Source: Planctomycetota bacterium (GTDB taxonomy: Bacteria; Planctomycetota; Brocadiia; Brocadiales; Bathyanammoxibiaceae). Taken from it: 64,000 bases of DNA. The translations under genes were made by a program, and so were the position numbers. Of the stretch, positions 6,235-63,896 are shown in pieces. The DNA is taken from the NCBI GenBank assembly GCA_016209685.1, contig JACQVQ010000005.1, forward strand, positions 24,655-88,654, written 5' to 3'. Below the pieces are notes generated by a model. It had not been told where the DNA came from. It searched no databases and saw only the letters and a list, made by a program, of their open reading frames with translations. The first letter of the stretch is position 1; the number at the start of each line of letters is the position of its first letter.

Positions 6235-6722
6235 CCCTTAGTGAGGTAGACCAGGTGTCTAAATCTTGTAGTGAGCGAAGCGAATCTGCTGGAAGGGTTG
6301 TTGCAGTCTGTATAAGTGAGAGAAAGGGCACCCAGAAGAAAGACGTTGGGGAGGCCCGTCTCACAGAAGACTACGGCATAGAAAAGGATGCCCATGCCGG
6401 TCCTGGCCATCGCCAGGTCAGCCTGCTGGCCCTTGAGAGCGCCGATACCATGCGGGCCAAGGGACTTGATATAGACTCAGGAGATTTTGGGGAAAATGTC
6501 GTTACAGAGGGCATCCATCTCAAGGATTTGCAGCTGGGTACCAGATTAAAGGTCGGCAAAGAGTCCCTCCTGGAGATTACACAGATAGGTAAAGAGTGTC
6601 ATGACCGCTGTGCCATCTATTATAAGGCCGGGGACTGCATCATGCCACGAGAGGGCATCTTCGCCAGGGTGCTCAAGGGCGGTACCATCCATGTTGGGGA
6701 TAAAATAGAGATAATCTACTAA
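6216..6722 (+). CDS. MOSC-domain protein (Moco sulfurase C-terminal-type). Start uncertain.
   Basis: From GRVVAVCISERKGTQKKDVGEARL onward it looks like single-domain MOSC proteins (GENVVTEGI, KECHDRCAIY). The first ~25 codons are encoded by repeats (SASGG, CSERSES). A GTG near 6252 is an alternative start. Confidence 0.75.
   Translation: MSASGGPLSEVDQVSKSCSERSESAGRVVAVCISERKGTQKKDVGEARLTEDYGIEKDAHAGPGHRQVSLLALESADTMRAKGLDIDSGDFGENVVTEGIHLKDLQLGTRLKVGKESLLEITQIGKECHDRCAIYYKAGDCIMPREGIFARVLKGGTIHVGDKIEIIY
6267..6287 (+). repeat. TGTAGTGAGCGAAGCGAATCT(A) 22-mer repeat, copy 1
   Basis: Exact string match. Other copies at 30720, 35512, 56956 (reverse) and 57966. Confidence 0.9.
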
Positions 6723-7442: not shown

Positions 7443-7470
7443 GAGATTCTTCGCTTCGCTCAGAATGACA
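7443..7470 (-). repeat. TGTCATTCTGAGCGAAGCGAAGAATCTC repeat (reverse orientation), 5 nt upstream of glyQ
   Basis: gagattcttcgcttcgctcagaatgaca. Same unit as 8722-8749. Confidence 0.9.
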
Positions 7471-15904: not shown

Positions 15905-15932
15905 GTAGGGGTTTGAATAATCAAACCCTTAC
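15905..15932. repeat. GTAGGGGTTTGA-ataa-TCAAACCCTTAC palindrome overlapping the Mo-oxidoreductase stop
   Basis: 10-bp arms. The last codons (VRV*) of the upstream gene lie in the right arm. Confidence 0.8.
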
Positions 15933-17891
15933 AATCTTTTCCACCTGGACATAGGTGGAGTTATAGGCGGCGTTGCCTCCGAAGGCCTGGACCTCGTCGG
16001 GTATTAGGGCACTCACCCCTTTCCCACCACAGAGCTTGGGCCAGAGCCCCCCGTAGGCCAGTACCACCCCCTTTTTTATGTCTCTCGTTAGTTTGGCCTT
16101 CATGGTCAACGTGTCCAGGGCACTCCTCAACCTCACCAGTTCCCCGTCTTCTATCTCCTTCTCCCTGGCCTCCTCCTCATTGATGAGCACTATCGGCTCT
16201 ATCTCCTCCTGCCAGACGTTATGGAACTGACTGCGGGTGATGTGCATGAGGTTGGCGGTTATGAGCTGGAACGGATAGCCATTCCTTTCTTCCTCGTAAT
16301 AGCCGGAGAGGGGTGGCAGACCGGCCTTTTCGGCCAGTTGAGAATAAAATTCTATCTTGCCCGAGGGCGTAGGGTAAACGTCCCTGGGCCTGGCCTTCAT
16401 CTTTAAGAAACCCTCCCGTTCAAGCTCCTCCAGTGTAAAGTCCACGGCCTTACTCCTGGCAAGGAACTCCTTGACTACCTCCCGCTCAGGAGGGAATATC
16501 TCGTCGGACTTTAGACCCATAGCCCCAGTTAACTCCCTGAAGACCTGATAATTAGGCTTCGCCTCCCCAAGGGGTCCAATCGCCTTCTGGTTTATGGACA
16601 TATAATTGTGGTAATAGCAGACATGGACATCAAAGGACTCAAGGAAGCTGGTAGCCGGTAGTACAATATCGGCATAGCTACAGGTGTCGTTTAAAAACAG
16701 GTCGTGCGCCACCACAAAGAGGTCTTCCCTCTCCAGCCCCTTTCTTACCAGGTTCTGGTTGGGGAGGTTTACCATGGGGTTGGTATTGAAGACGAAGAGA
16801 AATTTTATCTCGTCCGTCTGCAGTACCCTCCCCAGTTGTGCCATGTTGTAGGTCTTCCTACCTACTGTAGGGGCAGGTTTCAAACCTGCCCCTACCCCCT
16901 GGAGTAACCCCAGGTCTAGCTCCCTATCAGTATTGCTGTAATGCACTCTGTACCCCCCTACCAGGGGTGGCAGTAGGGCAATGGTCCTTACTGCCTCCCC
17001 CCCGTAGAGGTGTTTCTGCATGCCGAAGCCCAGGTGTATGAAGTGGGGCCTCAGACGGTACATGTCCTCGGCCAATCCTACTATATCCTCCCTGGGGAGT
17101 TCCGTAATCCTGGAGACCCTCTCAAGGTCAAACTCCTTCACCACTTCCAGGAATTTATCAAAACCATAGGCATACTTTTCAACGTGCTCACGTTCGTAAA
17201 GTCCTTTAGATATTAGGTAATTTGCAACCCCCAGGGCGAGGGCGCCATCGGTATTGGGCCTTATGGGGAGGTGTTTTCCAAGGTCGCAGGTCTTCAGGGG
17301 GTCTATGAGGTAGAATTTTGCCCCTTTGTGGACGGCCCGTTTGACGAGGTTGTAACCATGGAGATTAGACCACGGACCGTTCAGACCCCAGAAGATGATG
17401 AGTCTGGAGTCCTGTATCTCCTCCGGGTCAATGCCCCAGTAGCCTCCGTAGACGTATTGTAGGGCAGTCCTGCCTGCCAGGGAACAGACGGTAGGGGAGC
17501 ACTTGCTGGTACCCAGGACGTTGAAGAACCGTTGGGAGAACTGCTTGTTGAGGAGTCCCATGTGGCCGAAGTAATCAAAGGGCAGGATGGCCCCAGGGCC
17601 ATGCTTTGCCTGTACTTCTTCTATACGGCGTGCAATCTCACTGTAGGCCTCCTCCCAGGATATTCTCTTAAAATCATCCTTTCCCTTCTTTCCCACCCTT
17701 TTAAGGGGGTAAAATAGCCTCTGGGGTGAGTACACAAACTTCAGGGCATTCTGTATCTTCCAGCAGAGGAAGCCCTGGGTCATCGGGTGACTGGGGTTAC
17801 CCTGCAGCTTAACCGCCCTGCCACCCTCAGTGGTGGTGAGGATGGAACAGGTATCGTAGCAGTCCCTGGGACATGTATTGTATGTAGTCAT
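15921..17891 (-). CDS. Molybdopterin-dependent oxidoreductase (MopB/DMSO-reductase superfamily), cytoplasmic, substrate unknown
   Basis: Fe-S Cys cluster CPRDCYDTCS near the N-terminus and no Tat motif. The start is moved to MTTYNTCP (17891) because the upstream 14 codons are just the 17897-17924 palindrome. Neither start has a clear SD. Confidence 0.85.
   Translation of the reverse strand: MTTYNTCPRDCYDTCSILTTTEGGRAVKLQGNPSHPMTQGFLCWKIQNALKFVYSPQRLFYPLKRVGKKGKDDFKRISWEEAYSEIARRIEEVQAKHGPGAILPFDYFGHMGLLNKQFSQRFFNVLGTSKCSPTVCSLAGRTALQYVYGGYWGIDPEEIQDSRLIIFWGLNGPWSNLHGYNLVKRAVHKGAKFYLIDPLKTCDLGKHLPIRPNTDGALALGVANYLISKGLYEREHVEKYAYGFDKFLEVVKEFDLERVSRITELPREDIVGLAEDMYRLRPHFIHLGFGMQKHLYGGEAVRTIALLPPLVGGYRVHYSNTDRELDLGLLQGVGAGLKPAPTVGRKTYNMAQLGRVLQTDEIKFLFVFNTNPMVNLPNQNLVRKGLEREDLFVVAHDLFLNDTCSYADIVLPATSFLESFDVHVCYYHNYMSINQKAIGPLGEAKPNYQVFRELTGAMGLKSDEIFPPEREVVKEFLARSKAVDFTLEELEREGFLKMKARPRDVYPTPSGKIEFYSQLAEKAGLPPLSGYYEEERNGYPFQLITANLMHITRSQFHNVWQEEIEPIVLINEEEAREKEIEDGELVRLRSALDTLTMKAKLTRDIKKGVVLAYGGLWPKLCGGKGVSALIPDEVQAFGGNAAYNSTYVQVEKIVRV
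16867..16895. repeat. GTAGGGGCAGGTTT-c-AAACCTGCCCCTAC palindrome inside the Mo-oxidoreductase CDS
   Basis: Perfect 14-bp arms. Translated in frame as ..QGVGAGLKPAPTVG.. Confidence 0.95.
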
Positions 17892-17896
17892 AGGCA

Positions 17897-17924
17897 GTAG
17901 GGGCACGTTGCAACGTGCCCCTAC
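17897..17924. repeat. GTAGGGGCACGTTG|CAACGTGCCCCTAC perfect palindrome
   Basis: 28 bp. Same sequence as 42287-42314 (1 mismatch). Confidence 0.95.
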
Positions 17925-17988
17925 AAAAATCATGGTAGCAGAAAGGCGAAAGGGCTGTCAATGTTCGGATACGAGAGAACTCTCTTAT

Positions 17989-28243: not shown

Positions 28244-30370
28244 ATGGATAGAAAAAGGATCATAAACATTGTCCTGGCGGTATTTCTTGTAGCCTTTGCC
28301 CTCTTTGCTCTGATAAGCCTGGGAAGCTTTCACCCCACTGATCCCCCCTTCTCTAACTATCCCTCCAACGTCCAAATAAAAAATTATTGTGGACTGTTGG
28401 GGGCAGAACTATCAGGCTATACCCTATCTGGGCTGGGTCTTGCAGGTCTGGCGGTGATACTCCTGCTGGGCGCCTGGGGTGTAATATTCCTGTTGAAGGG
28501 AGAGATAGAAGACCTCTGGGTTAAGGCAGTAGGCGGGGCACTCCTTGTAGTCTCACTAAGTTTATTCCTGGGTCTCCTGGGCCCCATCCTACCCCCCAAA
28601 GGTCTCCTGGCATGGTCGGGAGGAATCCTTGGCACAACGGCCTCCGACCAATTAGTAAAGAACCTGGGCCTGGCCGGTACAGGGGTATTCCTGGCCTTCG
28701 GGTTCTTCATATCCACGGTACTCTTATTCAACATAAGCCTCGCAGAGGGCATCGTTGGCTGGGTCAGGGGGTTAAAAGCCCGTAGTGAATCCAAACGCCC
28801 CAGGAAGTCCAAGACACCTCCCCCTCTATCCACTGAGTCAGAGGAGGAGGCTGCCGCAGTACCTGCAGGCCCTCTGCAAGTACCCCTGGGGCTACTGGAC
28901 GAACCAGACCAGCGGGACGCCCAGGACGAGGAGTCCCTCCGCAAGGGAGCGGAGGTGCTTGAGTCCACCCTGGAGAAGTTTAACATAATCGCCCACGTAG
29001 TAGGCCATGAGACAGGCCCAGCCATAACCATGTACGAGGTAGAGTTATCCCCTGGCACAAAGGTATCTAAGGTCATCTCCCTGTCAGATGACATCGCCAT
29101 AGCCATGAAGGCCCCCAGTATAAGGGTGGTGGCCCCCCTCAAGGGGAGGTCCACCGTAGGGGTAGAGGTACCTAACGCACGCAGGGGAAACGTGAGGCTC
29201 AGGGAACTGCTGGAACTCACTGCCCAGGGCAAGATAGACGTCAGCGATGACTCCGTGCCCCTCCTCCTGGGGAGGGACATCACGGGTTATCCCATCTTTT
29301 GGGACCTGGCCTCCATGCCCCACCTCCTCATCGCGGGTACCACCGGCTCAGGAAAATCCGTGTGTTTGAACTCCATCATACTCAACATTTTATTCCTGAG
29401 GTCCCGCCGGGAGGTGAAGCTCCTCCTGGTGGACCCCAAGATGGTAGAGTTCTCTGCATTTAAGGACATCCCCCATCTAATAACCCCTGTGGTCACGGAC
29501 GTGAAGGAGGCCCAGGCGGTGCTGGAGTGGGCCGTTAACAAGATGGAAGAACGCTACAGCCTGCTGGCCAGGGTAGGGGTGAAAAATATCATTGAGTATA
29601 ATAAGTCTGGAGAAGAGAGCCTCAAGAAGAAACTGGGGCCCAGTGCAGAACTTGACCCCGAGGCCTTTTATCTCCCCCACGTGGTAATAATCATAGATGA
29701 ACTGGCAGACCTCATGATGGTGGCCTCAAGGAAGGTAGAGGATTACATCATAAGACTCTCCCAAAAGAGCCGTGCCGTGGGCATACACCTGATAGTCTCC
29801 ACCCAGAGGCCCTCGGTGGACGTGGTCACGGGGCTAATAAAATCCAACCTCCCTGCCCGCATATCCTTCCACGTGGCCTCCAAGGTGGACTCCAGGACCG
29901 TACTGGACCAGAACGGGGCAGAGAAGCTCCTGGGCAGTGGCGACATGCTCTTCATGCCCCCTGGCACCACAGAACTCCTGAGGGTCCAGGGCACTTATGT
30001 CAGTGATGAGGAGGTGCGGAAGGTGGTGGAGCACCTCAAGAAGCAGTCTACGCCTGAATTCTCCCCCGAACTCAAACAGTGGAAGCTCCAGGCCAAAAAG
30101 GAAGAAAGGGAAGACCCGCTCTACAAGGGGGCCGTACAGGTGACCCTTGGCAAGGGCAGGTGCAGTGAAAAACTGCTCCAGGAAGAACTCCAGGTCAGCT
30201 ATGCACGGGCAGTGTGCCTTATGGACCAGATGGTAGAGGATGGTATACTTGGAGAAGACAAAGGGGGAGGGTACAGGGAGGTGCTCCTGAAGCCTGAGGA
30301 GTGGAACCCCAGGCCTACGGTGGGCAAGGCGAAACTAAGGGAAAACCCTGAAGAGACCGTGAAGAAATGA
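28244..30370 (+). CDS. ftsK: DNA translocase FtsK/SpoIIIE
   Basis: 708 aa. N-terminal TM helices, GTTGSGKSV Walker A, IIIDELADLM Walker B, and a C-terminal gamma wHTH. Confidence 0.95.
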   Translation: MDRKRIINIVLAVFLVAFALFALISLGSFHPTDPPFSNYPSNVQIKNYCGLLGAELSGYTLSGLGLAGLAVILLLGAWGVIFLLKGEIEDLWVKAVGGALLVVSLSLFLGLLGPILPPKGLLAWSGGILGTTASDQLVKNLGLAGTGVFLAFGFFISTVLLFNISLAEGIVGWVRGLKARSESKRPRKSKTPPPLSTESEEEAAAVPAGPLQVPLGLLDEPDQRDAQDEESLRKGAEVLESTLEKFNIIAHVVGHETGPAITMYEVELSPGTKVSKVISLSDDIAIAMKAPSIRVVAPLKGRSTVGVEVPNARRGNVRLRELLELTAQGKIDVSDDSVPLLLGRDITGYPIFWDLASMPHLLIAGTTGSGKSVCLNSIILNILFLRSRREVKLLLVDPKMVEFSAFKDIPHLITPVVTDVKEAQAVLEWAVNKMEERYSLLARVGVKNIIEYNKSGEESLKKKLGPSAELDPEAFYLPHVVIIIDELADLMMVASRKVEDYIIRLSQKSRAVGIHLIVSTQRPSVDVVTGLIKSNLPARISFHVASKVDSRTVLDQNGAEKLLGSGDMLFMPPGTTELLRVQGTYVSDEEVRKVVEHLKKQSTPEFSPELKQWKLQAKKEEREDPLYKGAVQVTLGKGRCSEKLLQEELQVSYARAVCLMDQMVEDGILGEDKGGGYREVLLKPEEWNPRPTVGKAKLRENPEETVKK

Positions 30371-31737
30371 AGAACCCAAAGATTGCCCTTATCAGCCTCG
30401 GATGCACGAAGAACCTGGTGGACTCTGAAAAGATACTCGGCAGGCTGGCCCAGGGGGGGGCCTCCTTTTGTCAGGAACCAGAGGCGGCGGACGTACTCAT
30501 AATTAACACCTGTGGTTTTATAAAGGAGGCCAAAGAGGAGTCTGTGGAGACCATACTCCAGATGGTAAGACTTAAAGAGGCCCGCCTGAAAAAACTCATA
30601 GTCACGGGATGTCTGGCTGAGAGGTATCAGGAGGAGCTGACCAGGGACATCCCCGAAATAGACCATGTAGTGGGATTAGAGAATTTTAATCTGGTGGCAG
30701 AATTTTCAGGTCTTAAACATGTAGTGAGCGAAGCGAATCTAAAGGGTGGTAAAAACGGGTGTCAGGAGGATTTCAGGGTACGCCTTACCCCCAGACACTA
30801 TTCATATCTGAAGGTATCAGAAGGTTGTAATAACCCTTGCAGCTATTGTTCCATCCCATCCATAAGAGGCCCCTTCAAGAGCCGCAGTATGGAGGAGGTA
30901 CTAGGGGAGGCAAGGGAACTTGTCTCAAGCGGGACCAAAGAGATAAACCTCATCGCCCAGGATAGCACCCTTTACGGTATAGACCTCTACGGCAGGAAAT
31001 GTCTCCACGAACTCCTCCAGAGGCTTTCGGAGATTGATGACCTTAGATGGATTAGGCTCCTCTATACCCACCCGGCCCACTTCTACCCTGCCCTCATTAA
31101 TGAGATTGCCAGTAATGAGAAGGTGGTGAAGTATCTGGACCTCCCCACCCAGCATATTAATGACAAAATCCTGGCAAGGATGGGCAGGGGAGTAAACAGG
31201 GGCGATATTGAGGGCCTCATAAAGAGACTGCGCGAGGAGGTGTCAGGCCTCTTCTTGAGGAGCACCGTAATCGTGGGTTTCCCCGGGGAGGGGGAGGAGG
31301 AGTTTCAGGAGCTCCTGGACTTCCTGGAAGAAACGGCCTTTGAAAGGCTGGGGGCCTTTACGTATTCTAAGGAAGAGGGGACCGCTGCGGCGGGCCTTCG
31401 GGGTCACGTCTCTGAAAAGATAAAGAAGAAGAGACTGGGAGAGGTAATGTCACTGCAACAGGGGCTTGCCTTCAGGGAAAACGCCCGCCGGGTGGGTAAA
31501 GAAATAGAGGTACTGGTAGAGGAAGTAGGGGCAACCCTTGCGGTTGCCCAAAATAAAAGGGCAGGTGCAAGACCTGCCCCTACACTGCGACGGGGGTATG
31601 GAAGGTCCTATGGCGATGCGCCAGAGGTGGATGGTAACGTCAAGCTTGAGGGTTCCAACCTGATGACAGGAGAGTTCCGCAGGGCCCTCGTAACAACGTG
31701 GGAGGGTTACAACCTTGTTGCCCGCTGTCTGGACTGA
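30367..31737 (+). CDS. rimO: Ribosomal protein S12 methylthiotransferase RimO carrying two in-frame repeat insertions
   Basis: IALISLGCTKNLVDSE, CNNPCSYCSIP, and a TRAM end with DAPEVDG. The 22-mer repeat lies in the domain linker and a double-hairpin palindrome lies in TRAM. Confidence 0.92.
   Translation: MKNPKIALISLGCTKNLVDSEKILGRLAQGGASFCQEPEAADVLIINTCGFIKEAKEESVETILQMVRLKEARLKKLIVTGCLAERYQEELTRDIPEIDHVVGLENFNLVAEFSGLKHVVSEANLKGGKNGCQEDFRVRLTPRHYSYLKVSEGCNNPCSYCSIPSIRGPFKSRSMEEVLGEARELVSSGTKEINLIAQDSTLYGIDLYGRKCLHELLQRLSEIDDLRWIRLLYTHPAHFYPALINEIASNEKVVKYLDLPTQHINDKILARMGRGVNRGDIEGLIKRLREEVSGLFLRSTVIVGFPGEGEEEFQELLDFLEETAFERLGAFTYSKEEGTAAAGLRGHVSEKIKKKRLGEVMSLQQGLAFRENARRVGKEIEVLVEEVGATLAVAQNKRAGARPAPTLRRGYGRSYGDAPEVDGNVKLEGSNLMTGEFRRALVTTWEGYNLVARCLD
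30720..30741 (+). repeat. TGTAGTGAGCGAAGCGAATCTA 22-mer, copy 2 (inside rimO)
   Basis: Exact match. Translated as HVVSEANLK. Confidence 0.95.
31525..31583. repeat. GTAGGGGCAACC-cttgc-GGTTGCCC...GGGCAGGT-gcaag-ACCTGCCCCTAC double-hairpin element inside rimO
   Basis: Two adjacent perfect 8-bp-stem hairpins framed by GTAGGGG / CCCCTAC. Translated as VGATLAVAQNKRAGARPAPTL. Confidence 0.95.
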
Positions 31738-35476: not shown

Positions 35477-35533
35477 TCCGCCTCAGGCGGAGAAGTGGAA
35501 GGGAAAGGGCCTGTAGTGAGCGGAGCGAATCTA
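35477..35533. repeat. tccgcctcaggcgga palindrome plus TGTAGTGAGCGGAGCGAATCTA (22-mer copy 3, 1 mismatch) abutting the cdaA ATG
   Basis: 35477-35491 and 35512-35533. The 22-mer ends at the base before ATG 35534. Confidence 0.9.
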
Positions 35534-36343
35534 ATGGAAAGGATTATAGGAGAGTTAAATTTTTGGGGCCTCCTGCGGGCCTCTATAGAGATTTTCATCA
35601 TATTCCTGATGCTATATTTTGTCCTTGGCTTTATGCAAGGCACTAGAGGAGTGGGCATCATAAGGGGACTGGTCTTCTCACTGGTCATTGCCACCGTAGC
35701 CCTCCTTTTCATCATAAGGAAATTCCAACTCTACACAGTGGACTGGCTACTAACCGAGTTCCTGCCCTGGGTCACCATCCCCTTCATCATCCTCTTCCAA
35801 CCAGAACTCAGGCGGGCGCTGGTAAGGCTGGGGCAAAACCCCTTACTCGGGGCCTTCTTCAGGACAGAAACCCCTGCAATAGAGGAAGTGGTAAAGGCGG
35901 CCGCCGCCCTATCCAAAAACCGTCTGGGCGGAATAATCGCCATAGAGAGGAAGGTCGGGTTAGATAACTTCATTGAGGGGGGAAACCGCATCAACGCCGA
36001 CCTCTCCAGCGACCTTATAAACACCATCTTCTGGCCCGGTTCCCCCATGCACGATGGGGCAGTAATTGTACAGGGACAGAAGCTGGCCGCCGCCGGATGC
36101 CTCCTGCCCCTCAGCGATAGCCCTGACGTAGACAAGGCACTGGGCACCCGACACAGGGCCGGTCTCGGCCTCACGGAAGAGACGGACGCCATCTCCATCA
36201 TAGTCTCGGAACGTACGGGCAACGTCTCCCTGGCCGTAAGGGGACAGCTTACCAGCGGCTACGACGCCCAGGGGCTGAGGAAGGCTCTGGAGCAACTACT
36301 AGGCCCCACAGACCACGACAATAAGGAGACCAGTCTTGATTAG
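35534..36343 (+). CDS. cdaA: Diadenylate cyclase CdaA (DisA_N, membrane-anchored)
   Basis: Three N-terminal TM helices. DGAVIV and GTRHRAGLGLTEETDA motifs. The start at MERIIGE has no clear SD. Confidence 0.9.
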   Translation: MERIIGELNFWGLLRASIEIFIIFLMLYFVLGFMQGTRGVGIIRGLVFSLVIATVALLFIIRKFQLYTVDWLLTEFLPWVTIPFIILFQPELRRALVRLGQNPLLGAFFRTETPAIEEVVKAAAALSKNRLGGIIAIERKVGLDNFIEGGNRINADLSSDLINTIFWPGSPMHDGAVIVQGQKLAAAGCLLPLSDSPDVDKALGTRHRAGLGLTEETDAISIIVSERTGNVSLAVRGQLTSGYDAQGLRKALEQLLGPTDHDNKETSLD

Positions 36344-56947: not shown

Positions 56948-57895
56948 ATGGCCGATAGATTCGCTTCGCTCACTACAAGGGTTGACCTATCCACAGAGCT
57001 TTGTGGTGTAAGGCTTCAAAACCCCACAGTCCTGGCCTCTGGCATCCTGGGCACAAGCAAAGGTCTGCTGAAGGGTGTAGCCCTGGCAGGTGCCGGGGCC
57101 GTAACGATAAAGTCCTTGAGCCTGGAACCCCTTCCCGGCCACAATAACCCCATAGTGGTAGGGTTTGAGGCCGGAATGCTTAATGCCGTGGGATACGCCA
57201 ACCCTGGCATCAAAGAAGGGGCTAAAGAGTTTAGCAACCTCAAAGAAGTGGGGGTGCCTGTAATTGCCAGCATAATAGGTAGAGGTGTGGGGGATTTTAT
57301 GAAGGTGCTGGAGGGGCTCTGGGGGCTGGACTTTGCCGCAGTAGAGGTGTCCCTCTCGTGCCCTCACACGCCCGGTTACGGGATGCTGGCAGGGCAGAAT
57401 ACCCCAGAGGCCACTAAAGAGATTGTCTCCGTTGTACGTAAAGGTACAGAACTACCCCTCCTGGTGAAGCTCTCCCCCAACATTCCAGAGATAGGTCGGG
57501 TGGCCAGGGCCGCAGAGGAGGCCGGGGCCGATGGCATCACGGCCGTTAATACCCTGGGCCCCGGTATGTTAATCAACATTGAGGCCCGCCAACCCATACT
57601 GGACTTCAAAGTGGGTGGCGTCTCAGGGCCAGCCCTCAGGCCCATTGCCCTCAGGTGTGTTTATGACATTTATAAGTCGGTAAAAATCCCTATCCTGGGG
57701 GTGGGGGGCATATCCACCGGGCGTCATGCCATAGAGATGCTCATGGCCGGCGCCTCTGCCGTAGGCATTGGCACTGCCGTCTATTCCCGAGGGATAGAGG
57801 TCTTTGGCAAGGTATGCCAGGAGATGGAGGAATGGATGGAGATCAACGGCTGTACCTCAGTAAAGGAGTTGATAGGGGCTGCCCATGCACCTTGA
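56948..57895 (+). CDS. pyrD: Dihydroorotate dehydrogenase, class 1B catalytic subunit
   Basis: LQNPTVLASG and the PyrD fold, followed by pyrK. The start is set at MADRFASLTT. Codons 3-10 are the reverse 22-mer repeat. Confidence 0.9.
   Translation: MADRFASLTTRVDLSTELCGVRLQNPTVLASGILGTSKGLLKGVALAGAGAVTIKSLSLEPLPGHNNPIVVGFEAGMLNAVGYANPGIKEGAKEFSNLKEVGVPVIASIIGRGVGDFMKVLEGLWGLDFAAVEVSLSCPHTPGYGMLAGQNTPEATKEIVSVVRKGTELPLLVKLSPNIPEIGRVARAAEEAGADGITAVNTLGPGMLINIEARQPILDFKVGGVSGPALRPIALRCVYDIYKSVKIPILGVGGISTGRHAIEMLMAGASAVGIGTAVYSRGIEVFGKVCQEMEEWMEINGCTSVKELIGAAHAP
56956..56977 (-). repeat. TGTAGTGAGCGAAGCGAATCTA 22-mer, copy 4 (reverse orientation, in the pyrD 5' end)
   Basis: tagattcgcttcgctcactaca, the exact reverse complement. 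Confidence 0.95.
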
Positions 57896-57902
57896 GCCGG
57901 TA

Positions 57903-58694
57903 ATGATGAAGATTGAGGAGGTAATCCTGGAATCCAACCTGGCCAGGAGTTTTATCTTCAAGACTTGTAGTGAGCGAAGCGAATCTAAATCCCTGGAATA
58001 CCAACCCGGACAGTTCATTATGCTCTGGATACCCAGGCTGGACGAAAAGCCCTTCAGTATCTCTTATCATGGCAAAGACTTCTTTGGCGTAACCGTTGCC
58101 CTCAAGGGCAGATTCACCCAGAGGCTGCACGAGATGAAGGTGGGTGAGTGGGTGGGCATCAGGGGGCCCTTCGGCACGGCCTTCAACCTGAACGTGGGAA
58201 AGGCATGTGTGGTAGGGGGCGGGGTGGGCATGGCCTCCCTGGCGGTACTCATTGAGAGGTTGGAGGATTCTGTGGTGGTGCAAGGGGCAAGGACGGCCTC
58301 GGAACTGCTTTACCGCAACCGCTTCAAGGACATGCTCCTCTGTACAGAGGACGGCTCTGCGGGGACGAAGGGTGTACCCACAGACCTGCTGGAAGATTTA
58401 TACAGACACTACAGATTTGACGCCATCTATACCTGCGGCCCGGAGGCCATGATGGTAAAGGTATCGGAATTCGCAAGGGAATACAACATCTGCATGCAGG
58501 CCTCCCTGGAGCGGTACATAAAATGTGCCGTGGGTGTGTGCGGACAGTGTTGTTGTAATGGACTGAGGTTGTGCGTAGAGGGGCCGGTGCTGGATGGCGG
58601 GACGCTAGAGAAACTGGAAGACTTCGGCAGATACGCCCGACGCGGAAACGGGCGCAGGGTACCTATTGGAACATATTTAGGTAAGAAAACTTAA
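57903..58694 (+). CDS. pyrK: Dihydroorotate dehydrogenase electron-transfer subunit
   Basis: FAD/NAD-binding domains (PGQFIMLWIP, VVGGGVGMA) and a C-terminal 2Fe-2S motif CAVGVCGQCC. ATG 57885 is an alternative start. The 22-mer is translated as TCSERSESK. Confidence 0.88.
   Translation: MMKIEEVILESNLARSFIFKTCSERSESKSLEYQPGQFIMLWIPRLDEKPFSISYHGKDFFGVTVALKGRFTQRLHEMKVGEWVGIRGPFGTAFNLNVGKACVVGGGVGMASLAVLIERLEDSVVVQGARTASELLYRNRFKDMLLCTEDGSAGTKGVPTDLLEDLYRHYRFDAIYTCGPEAMMVKVSEFAREYNICMQASLERYIKCAVGVCGQCCCNGLRLCVEGPVLDGGTLEKLEDFGRYARRGNGRRVPIGTYLGKKT
57966..57987 (+). repeat. TGTAGTGAGCGAAGCGAATCTA 22-mer, copy 5 (inside pyrK)
   Basis: Exact match. Forms an inverted pair with 56956-56977. Confidence 0.95.
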
Positions 58695-63775: not shown

Positions 63776-63852
63776 TGGCACCCCCAGCAGGGCTCAAACC
63801 TGCGACCTCTGGCTCCGGAGGCCAGCGCTCTGTTCAACTGAGCTATGGGGGC
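63776..63852 (-). tRNA. tRNA-Arg (anticodon CCG), CCA encoded
   Basis: Hand-folded 77 nt: GCCCCCA UA GCUC AGUUGAACA GAGC G CUGGC CUCCGGA GCCAG AGGUC GCAGG UUUGAGC CCUGC UGGGGGU G CCA. Close in layout to E. coli tRNA-Arg(CCG) as recalled from memory. Confidence 0.9.
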
Positions 63853-63868: not shown

Positions 63869-63896
63869 GTAGGGGCACGGCGCGCCGTGCCCCTAC
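63869..63896. repeat. GTAGGGGCACGGCG|CGCCGTGCCCCTAC perfect palindrome in the tRNA-Arg leader
   Basis: Identical to 14774-14801. Lies between the candidate promoter and the tRNA 5' end. Confidence 0.95.

Follow-up and report, generated by a model that had tools for sequence, protein, structure and literature searches.

We analysed a stretch of 64,000 nucleotides (nt) from a planctomycete (assembly GCA_016209685.1, contig JACQVQ010000005.1), referred to below as the window, in which the gene rimO, encoding the ribosomal protein S12 methylthiotransferase, occupies positions 30367..31737 of the forward strand. Its open reading frame (ORF) runs for 456 codons plus the stop and is open throughout, as had been read from the sequence in the original prediction. 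The product scores 474.2 bits against NCBIfam TIGR01125, exceeding the curated equivalog cut-off of 356.95, and all three Pfam domains are matched, namely UPF0004 (the N-terminal methylthiotransferase (MTTase) domain), Radical_SAM and TRAM_2. Three metagenome-assembled genome (MAG) accessions, on three contigs, contain an identical protein of 456 amino acids, entered as RimO from the planctomycete Candidatus Tripitaka californicus. By sequence, the best solved relative of the window protein is the RimO of T. maritima (4JC0). The original prediction also held that this gene carries two different repeats in frame. This can be upheld, as the TIGR01125 match identifies the gene, both sequences lie within it at the coordinates given below, and both are dispersed repeats.

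Insert 1 is a 24-nt mini-hairpin repeat (CATGTAGTGAGCGAAGCGAATCTA; family consensus CTTGTAGTGAGCGAAGCGAATCTA) at 30718..30741 on the forward strand; its translation, HVVSEANL, falls in the linker joining the N-terminal domain to the radical SAM core. Its placement is ambiguous by one base, as 30717-30740 fits equally well. It had been described as a 22-mer at 30720-30741; the linker position stands, and the length has to be amended to 24 nt, with the two preceding bases belonging to the unit. The 22-mer itself is found in five copies in the window at one mismatch or fewer, compared with none in 100 shuffles. An alignment of DNA gives the window rimO exactly 24 additional nt relative to the empty site CTTAA/AAAGGG (the slash marks the junction) of all seven relatives, some of them ~96% identical, and there is no target duplication. 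The insert is also missing from the other 20 orthologs in a protein alignment (A1). An ortholog alignment showing no length difference would have spoken against the insertion, and the 24 nt are absent in 7/7 relatives. Two of the genes without insert 1 (L003 and L026, the latter from the MAG 'Planctomycetes bacterium RIFCSPHIGHO2_12_FULL_52_36') have a different 24-nt unit, CTTGTCCTGAGCGTAGCGAATGGA, 12 nt downstream. It matches insert 1 at 18 of 24 positions and shows a compensatory stem change from TAG/CTA to TCC/GGA, so that the rimO linker has been struck twice, independently, by one element family.

Insert 2 is a 59-nt dimer of GTAG-headed palindromes of the GTAGGGGC...GCCCCTAC family at 31525..31583, also on the forward strand, with the GTAG/CTAC ends pointing outward (head-out). 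Hairpin 1 (31529..31549; GGGCAACC-CTTGC-GGTTGCCC) and hairpin 2 (31559..31579; GGGCAGGT-GCAAG-ACCTGCCC), both with an 8-bp stem in the DNA fold, are separated by an A-rich spacer (31550..31558; AAAATAAAA) and followed by a junction sequence (31584..31593; ACTGCGACGG). The window has 69 nt (31525-31593) where the empty alleles L001 and L004 (~96% identical) have the 15 nt CTTTCAGCCCAAGGA, a net gain of 54 nt or 18 codons. The position of the double hairpin and the gain of about 18 residues had thus been foreseen correctly. What does not hold is a clean insertion, because 69 nt replace 15. The insert is absent from P0004 and P0005 (96-97% amino acid identity), and from P0122 and P0124. The 15-nt version is the ancestral one, as the outgroup L124 (~78-80% RimO protein identity) still has CTTTCAGGT...CAATGG, with its own, different insert in between, and more distant RimO orthologs read ELSxQWGYGR at this site. 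Since the GTAGGGGC units are 27-29 nt long and do not keep the frame by themselves, the dimer is in frame only through its altered junction.

More distant lineages hold other versions of insert 2. In L005 and L006 (~82% identical) it is 68 nt long with the same junction, and a CCGCCTGAGGCGG hairpin is nested in the first hairpin, while L007 has lost 30 nt, i.e. half of the element; all length differences among lineages are multiples of three. Although dS for rimO is ~0.8, only 5-7 of 54 nt differ between the insert of the window and those of L005 and L006, and these changes fall in the hairpin loops and the spacer, with the stem of hairpin 2 unchanged. L002 and L003 have stem-breaking substitutions. 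As DNA the 59-mer folds into two separate 8-bp hairpins (-18.9 kcal/mol, z = -5.4), and its minimum-energy fold as RNA is one long hairpin (-36.7 kcal/mol, z = -6.2), whereas nearest-neighbour folding of the 24-mer gives 0 kcal/mol as both DNA and RNA. The suggestion that the repeats create strong hairpins in the message therefore applies to insert 2 and fails for insert 1. A hairpin in the 24-mer is supported only by covariation of its stem across copies, together with non-canonical pairs which are left unscored by folding models. In RimO, the insert-derived peptide stretches are HVVSEANL and VGATLAVAQNKRAGARPAPT.

The close rimO alleles recovered by a protein search encode 430, 438, 448 or 456 residues, and the DNA of seven relatives was aligned. 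With the comparison restricted to alleles of 95% or higher protein identity, both inserts are present in the window and P0121, insert 1 alone in P0122 and P0124, insert 2 alone in P0002, and neither in P0004 and P0005. A fifth haplotype, P0003, combines insert 2 with the 24-nt unit at the other linker site. The occurrence of all four presence/absence combinations means that the two insertion events were independent, in agreement with the claim of two independent insertions in one enzyme. At the DNA level, five alleles are mosaic, with mutual identities of 95-97%, and the haplotype pattern stems either from recombination inside rimO or from repeated gain and loss. An allele tree of the five close, mosaic alleles gave neither an order for the gain and loss of insert 2 nor its exact original junction.

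The gene that received these repeats is under purifying selection. The ratio of nonsynonymous to synonymous divergence (dN/dS) between the window rimO and each of the seven relatives is 0.10-0.19, including the lineages which share insert 2 at a dS of ~0.8. The six cluster cysteines (C13, C49, C82, C154, C158 and C161, with CxxxCxxC at 154-161) are intact, and are invariant in 102 orthologs. An AlphaFold2 (AF2) model built on the alignment of these orthologs has a mean predicted local distance difference test (pLDDT) score of 91.5 and a predicted template modelling (pTM) score of 0.89, and compares with 4JC0 at a TM-score of 0.85/0.91. The pLDDT falls below 50 in two segments only, at residues 121-134, which make up the linker around insert 1, and at 392-397, where insert 2 has its tip. 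In this model, the strands that flank insert 2 (379-391 and 407-414) form a lengthened beta hairpin, and the Pfam TRAM_2 match begins only at residue 411, C-terminal to the insert. Both inserts lie in loops of naturally variable length: across the 102 orthologs the linker G103-R139 spans 23 to 60 residues and the TRAM loop V382-R413 spans 12 to 58, with a mode of 14. Structure modelling had been proposed as a check for surface loops, and the low confidence confined to the two inserts, within these variable loops, is what such loops would be predicted to give. The low dN/dS, the intact cysteines and the confident fold model also support the claim that the repeats can enter coding DNA without killing the gene. 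An intein, an intron or a programmed frameshift can be excluded, as the ORF is continuous and the inserts, of 24 and 59 nt, are translated in line with the flanking conserved residues.

With the insertions, the boundaries of the 24-nt unit, the polymorphism, the purifying selection and the loop location established, our preferred explanation, at a probability of roughly 75%, is that a working rimO acquired two non-autonomous hairpin repeats of the repetitive extragenic palindromic (REP) kind, which are tolerated as passengers in loops. Here we infer the activity of the enzyme and the route of mobilisation. That RimO is functional, with both inserts accommodated as surface loops, is predicted with high confidence. 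The 24-nt mini-hairpin would have inserted into the linker with the frame preserved by its own length, and the head-out dimer would have entered the TRAM loop with an altered junction, 69 nt taking the place of 15. Both would be translated as disordered surface segments of 8 and ~20 residues, and would survive because they sit in loops whose length varies naturally. Both are presence/absence polymorphisms that segregate in the population, reassorted either through recombination or through recurrent gain and loss.

Other copies of the 24-nt unit in the window show the same behaviour towards coding DNA. On the reverse strand, a copy at 56956..56979 is inserted in frame after codon 2 of pyrD (DRFASLTT), in reverse orientation; exact 24-nt empty sites are found in L125, L126 and L131, and the boundaries are unambiguous. 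Another, at 57964..57987 on the forward strand, is in frame in pyrK (TCSERSES). For this copy, the DNA of L125 shows the empty site, and the eight residues are missing from distant PyrK proteins. None of the four empty-site comparisons (rimO twice, pyrD and pyrK once each) reveals a target duplication. Four of the six frames of the unit are free of stops, and the three clearly intragenic copies (rimO, pyrD and pyrK) are read in three different frames, all open. Given a length of 24 nt and the lack of target duplication, the reading frame is kept by construction at every insertion. Two further copies on the forward strand lie at gene starts. One, at 6265..6288, lies on or close to the N-terminal end of a gene with a MOSC domain, the start codon of which is approximate. 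The other, at 35510..35533, directly precedes the start codon of cdaA (35534), and L124 is without this copy.

The cdaA-abutting copy (35510-35536) has a variant core, GCGGAGC, which puts GGAG ~8-12 nt before the ATG. The same variant stands directly before an ATG in three other MAGs (L011, L077 and L021), and judging by the sequence it may supply a ribosome-binding site.

The repeat family of insert 2 is likewise abundant in the window. The octamer GTAGGGGC occurs 37 times, compared with 4.0 +/- 2.1 expected, and there are eight full GTAGGGGC...GCCCCTAC palindromes of 27-29 nt in the 64 kb, most of them outside genes. The palindromes are mostly perfect, and their inner stems vary from copy to copy yet stay complementary. 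Identical palindrome subfamilies are common to lineages only ~78-80% identical in RimO protein, so that slow change would seem to be a property of the family and not proof of a role at rimO. A single palindrome at 16867..16895 on the reverse strand lies in frame in a molybdopterin oxidoreductase gene (15921-17933, reverse strand), where it encodes VGAGLKPAPT in the same reading phase as insert 2. Three close alleles of this gene (93-94% amino acid identity) have identical length.

Insertions of this kind are already known, as both intragenic REPs and Rickettsia palindromic elements (RPEs) have been described. Over 80 species, Planctomycetes among them, have been found to contain GTAG- and CGTC-tagged REP superfamilies (Di Nocera, De Gregorio and Rocco, 2013; PMC3733652). 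These REPs are 20-40 bp long and mostly intergenic, with a minority located within genes whose proteins are known. Among the intragenic REPs, dimers encoding 20-30 amino acids make up over half, uvrA and uvrB carry two inserts, and the authors propose that intragenic REPs sit in flexible linkers or loops (PMC3733652). The rimO inserts closely match this account, the comparison with the 24 families of that paper being one of description and not of consensus. They resemble REPs in size, dispersed copy number, palindromy, compensatory subfamilies and dimer form. Compared with that work, the host gene rimO and the organism are new, and here the insertions are dated by empty alleles in one population. 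The match to the unpaired GTAG tag of REPs is less clear. Both rimO elements contain GTAG, but in the GTAGGGGC family it pairs with the terminal CTAC, and in the 24-mer family its AG shows covariation with bases downstream of it (AG-CT, CC-GG, GG-CC) and so belongs to a stem instead of a fixed tag.

RPEs, classic in Rickettsia, share with the rimO repeats the presence of palindromic selfish DNA in frame in unrelated housekeeping genes, and their products have been judged compatible with fold and function (reviewed in PMC10969869). However, they are ~100-150 bp long, fall into ten families and each encode a conserved peptide module. The rimO elements, of 24 and 59 nt, can be excluded from this class by size and taxon, and by the lack of a fixed peptide, the 24-nt unit being read in three frames. 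[quoted passage not shown] Like IS200/IS605 elements with their single-strand 'peel and paste' movement, the 24-nt unit takes the form of a hairpin carrying a short 5' tail, makes no target duplication and leaves seamless empty sites. It differs in that no conserved target tetranucleotide is found at the four insertion sites. Insert 2 has the two inverted REP-like units and short spacer of REP doublets forming hairpins (REPINs), which are associated with REP-associated tyrosine transposases (RAYTs) (Bertels and Rainey, 2011, PMC3116915; Nunvar et al., 2010, PMC2817692). In insert 2 it is the RNA that folds as a single long hairpin, the DNA folding as two. No RAYT was found beside either rimO element, and the RAYTs of sister strains are flanked by other GTAG-headed hairpins.

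In the sister strain L125, whose PyrD is 94% identical, a 178-residue ORF between pyrD and pyrK (within L125:1040-1830) is a RAYT, with 98.6 bits against NF047646 (cut-off 80) and a match to Pfam Y1_Tnp. Homologues are found in L207, likewise between pyrD and pyrK (within L207:3330-4180), and elsewhere in L208 (L208:3501-3887). The enzyme class believed to mobilise REPs is thus represented in the lineage. Mobilisation as a single-stranded hairpin also fits the 24-nt unit because its junctions are seamless and free of duplication. A RAYT acting in trans could thus have moved both elements as single-stranded DNA hairpins, which we regard as possible, with odds a little short of even. In L125, a 17-nt sequence (ATGCACCTTGAGCCGGT), comprising the pyrD stop and the pyrK start, is duplicated on both sides of the RAYT-bearing block.

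Several observations weigh against the acquisition of two mobile repeats as set out above. The RAYTs of L125, L207 and L208 have a third type of repeat, GGGTAG-YTGYRGGTCTCCNGACCYRCAAA, on their flanks, and neither of the rimO elements. This repeat type is absent from the window, where pyrD and pyrK overlap, and no RAYT was found in the 64 kb by tblastn with the L125 protein or with an approximate E. coli RAYT sequence. The presence of insert 2 does not track allele relatedness, as measured by overall similarity among the five alleles, and neither does that of the pyrD copy of the 24-nt unit. Insert 2 lacks a clean junction. In addition, each of the molybdopterin oxidoreductase alleles holds a different palindrome in one equal-length block of 42 nt, a substitution which fits patch replacement better than simple transposition.

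At the pyrD site, L127 (~135-160, at the pyrD start; 89% PyrD identity) has a decayed 24-nt copy (~17/24), the site being empty in closer relatives (94% and 90-91%). The 42-nt block of the molybdopterin oxidoreductase reads GTAGGGGCAGGTTTGAAACCTGCCCCTAC in the window; L205:2497-2538 has GTAGGGGCACGTTGCAACGTGCCCCTAC, offset by 13 nt and in another reading frame, and L206:~485-526 has an unrelated 9-bp hairpin, TCCAGCGACACAGTCGCTGGA. In the orthologs P0129 and P0132 the same loop contains a further insert, ...KIQNPNSEFRNP..., which looks like a translated simple repeat of the AAAATCC type, as seen beside 24-mer-like hairpins in other genomes.

The rival that these observations favour is short-patch recombination or template switching, whereby another copy of the repeat serves as template for a stretch of sequence and no transposition takes place. 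Besides the molybdopterin oxidoreductase alleles, it would account for the 69-for-15 replacement at insert 2 and for the mosaic rimO haplotypes with all four gametes present. What it does not readily explain is the 24-nt unit, whose boundaries are exact and identical at four sites unrelated to one another, two of them in rimO and the others in pyrD and pyrK, with no flanking homology to be seen, as expected from a site-independent strand-transfer enzyme. Overall, we consider copying of this kind unlikely as the source of the inserts.

A role for the hairpins as domesticated nucleic acid, through translation pausing between domains, stabilisation of the message or binding of a protein, appears more doubtful still. 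The near-constancy of insert 2 at a dS of ~0.8, with changes restricted to loops and spacer, is what such a role would leave behind, and the strongly folded RNA and the position of both inserts at domain boundaries are in keeping with it. However, both inserts are presence/absence polymorphisms within one population, L002 and L003 have broken stems, and L007 does without half of the element. Relative to transcription, the 24-mer is found in either orientation (RimO and PyrK versus PyrD), and subfamilies identical across lineages ~78-80% identical in RimO protein suggest that slow change is family-wide.

That rimO is a decaying pseudogene, disrupted by the repeats and with its open frame left over, is very improbable. 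Two insertions in one gene might raise the suspicion, but dN/dS is low in every comparison, even for insert-bearing lineages at a dS of ~0.8, the later length changes in insert 2 are all multiples of three, the cluster cysteines are invariant and the fold is confidently predicted. An insert-free second rimO had been named as the finding that would point to a pseudogene; no second MTTase or rimO gene was found within the 64-kb window, to which this search extended, and constraint has been kept on the present copy. A repeat-induced chimera of assembly, for which the MAG source and the multi-copy repeats might speak, can be dismissed, since the doubly decorated protein is unchanged in three accessions on three contigs, single-insert alleles were assembled independently from other samples, and the inserts are far shorter than a sequencing read.

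Under acquisition of two mobile repeats, the rimO alleles offer a clean natural experiment on selfish hairpin DNA adding loops to enzymes of an essential class. The four natural alleles in one population would allow activity, translation and mRNA stability to be compared directly, and the exact before-and-after junctions of a frame-preserving 24-nt element could be used to test the role of a REP-associated transposase. There is also a warning for annotation: where a conserved protein of a repeat-rich genome shows a short, unusual stretch of inserted peptide (e.g. HVVSEANL, CSERSES, RFASLTT and VGA...PAPT), that stretch may be derived from a repeat and not be a functional motif. Beyond the REPs and RPEs already described, this case adds four natural haplotypes, exact 24-nt junctions and a hint that the top of the hairpin is shared across many phyla.

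The 24-nt unit has CTTG as a tail of 4 nt, TAG/CTA as a stem of 3 bp and, as its conserved top, TGA-GC-GNA-GC-GAA(T). In the hairpin, the stem would be followed by T-GA, GC-GNA-GC and GA-A in turn. DNA mini-hairpins are stabilised by tandem G·A pairs and by GNA triloops. A loose scan of a 596-Gb genome collection with TGTNNTGAGCGNAGCGAAT would give an estimated ~280 matches by chance, so that around half of the matches listed, to which the following applies, may be noise; the informative part lies in the covarying flanks and in those that recur. The core TGAGCGNAGCGAAT is found in many phyla, and the two bases before it pair with the two after it (AG-CT, GG-CC, CC-GG etc.). The mean flanking stem is 3.0 pairs, compared with 1.78 +/- 0.13 when 3' flanks are swapped among loci. 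The top TGAGCGNAGCGAA(T) with covarying stems is seen in groups of the candidate phyla radiation (CPR), Chloroflexota, Planctomycetota, Zixibacteria, cyanobacteria, Thioalkalivibrio and others (L008-L123). Some flanks are clade-specific, with ATAAACCA...TCCGCG in Dehalococcoidia and AGAATC...GATTCTTGACCC in CPR bacteria. No recurrent gene was found beside the copies across phyla; a Terriglobia MAG has one truncated RAYT-like ORF at a distance of 67 nt from its copy.

Within the window, the top TGAGCGNAGCGAA(T) has copies at 7451, 8731, 8771 and 18102, and longer-stem relatives of the 24-nt unit occur between genes, e.g. TGTCATTCTGAGCGAAGCGAAGAATCTC. In Rfam, neither rimO element was found at the gathering threshold over the whole window (which gave one tRNA only), nor at E <= 10 over 30600-31700. 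Literature searches on the organism name, repeat-derived peptides or the core sequence returned nothing useful, and the hairpin family is undescribed as far as we found. It is conceivable, at rather long odds, that the 24-nt unit is the smallest member of an old, multi-phylum family of hairpins with the top TGA-GC-GNA-GC-GAA, whose frame-neutral design lets it colonise coding DNA routinely in this lineage. If so, the frame-neutral design would consist of a length of 3n, the lack of target duplication and four open frames out of six, and the conserved top would imply a conserved partner protein.

Further GTAGGGGC palindromes lie close to gene boundaries. One, at 17897-17924, is a few bases upstream of the likely molybdopterin oxidoreductase start, as orthologs begin at Met15 of the called ORF, and another, at 63869-63896, is 17 nt from a tRNA gene (63779-63852). 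Half-sites of GTAGGGGC are unusually dense between 41900 and 45500, including dimers of 92-94 nt with nested hairpins, and the repeats there are interleaved with genes for small pilin-like proteins (N_methyl and T2SSG domains).

A further hairpin repeat, CCGCCYSRGGCGG, has nine copies in the window (6220, 15117, 18007, 22195, 35478, 41955, 42005, 42625 and 45224). It is nested within the older version of insert 2 (L005-L007; L005:4146), and is also found in frame at about codon 75 of the L124 rimO (L124:10224), where it encodes ASGG; P0024 has a similar SASGG at this position.

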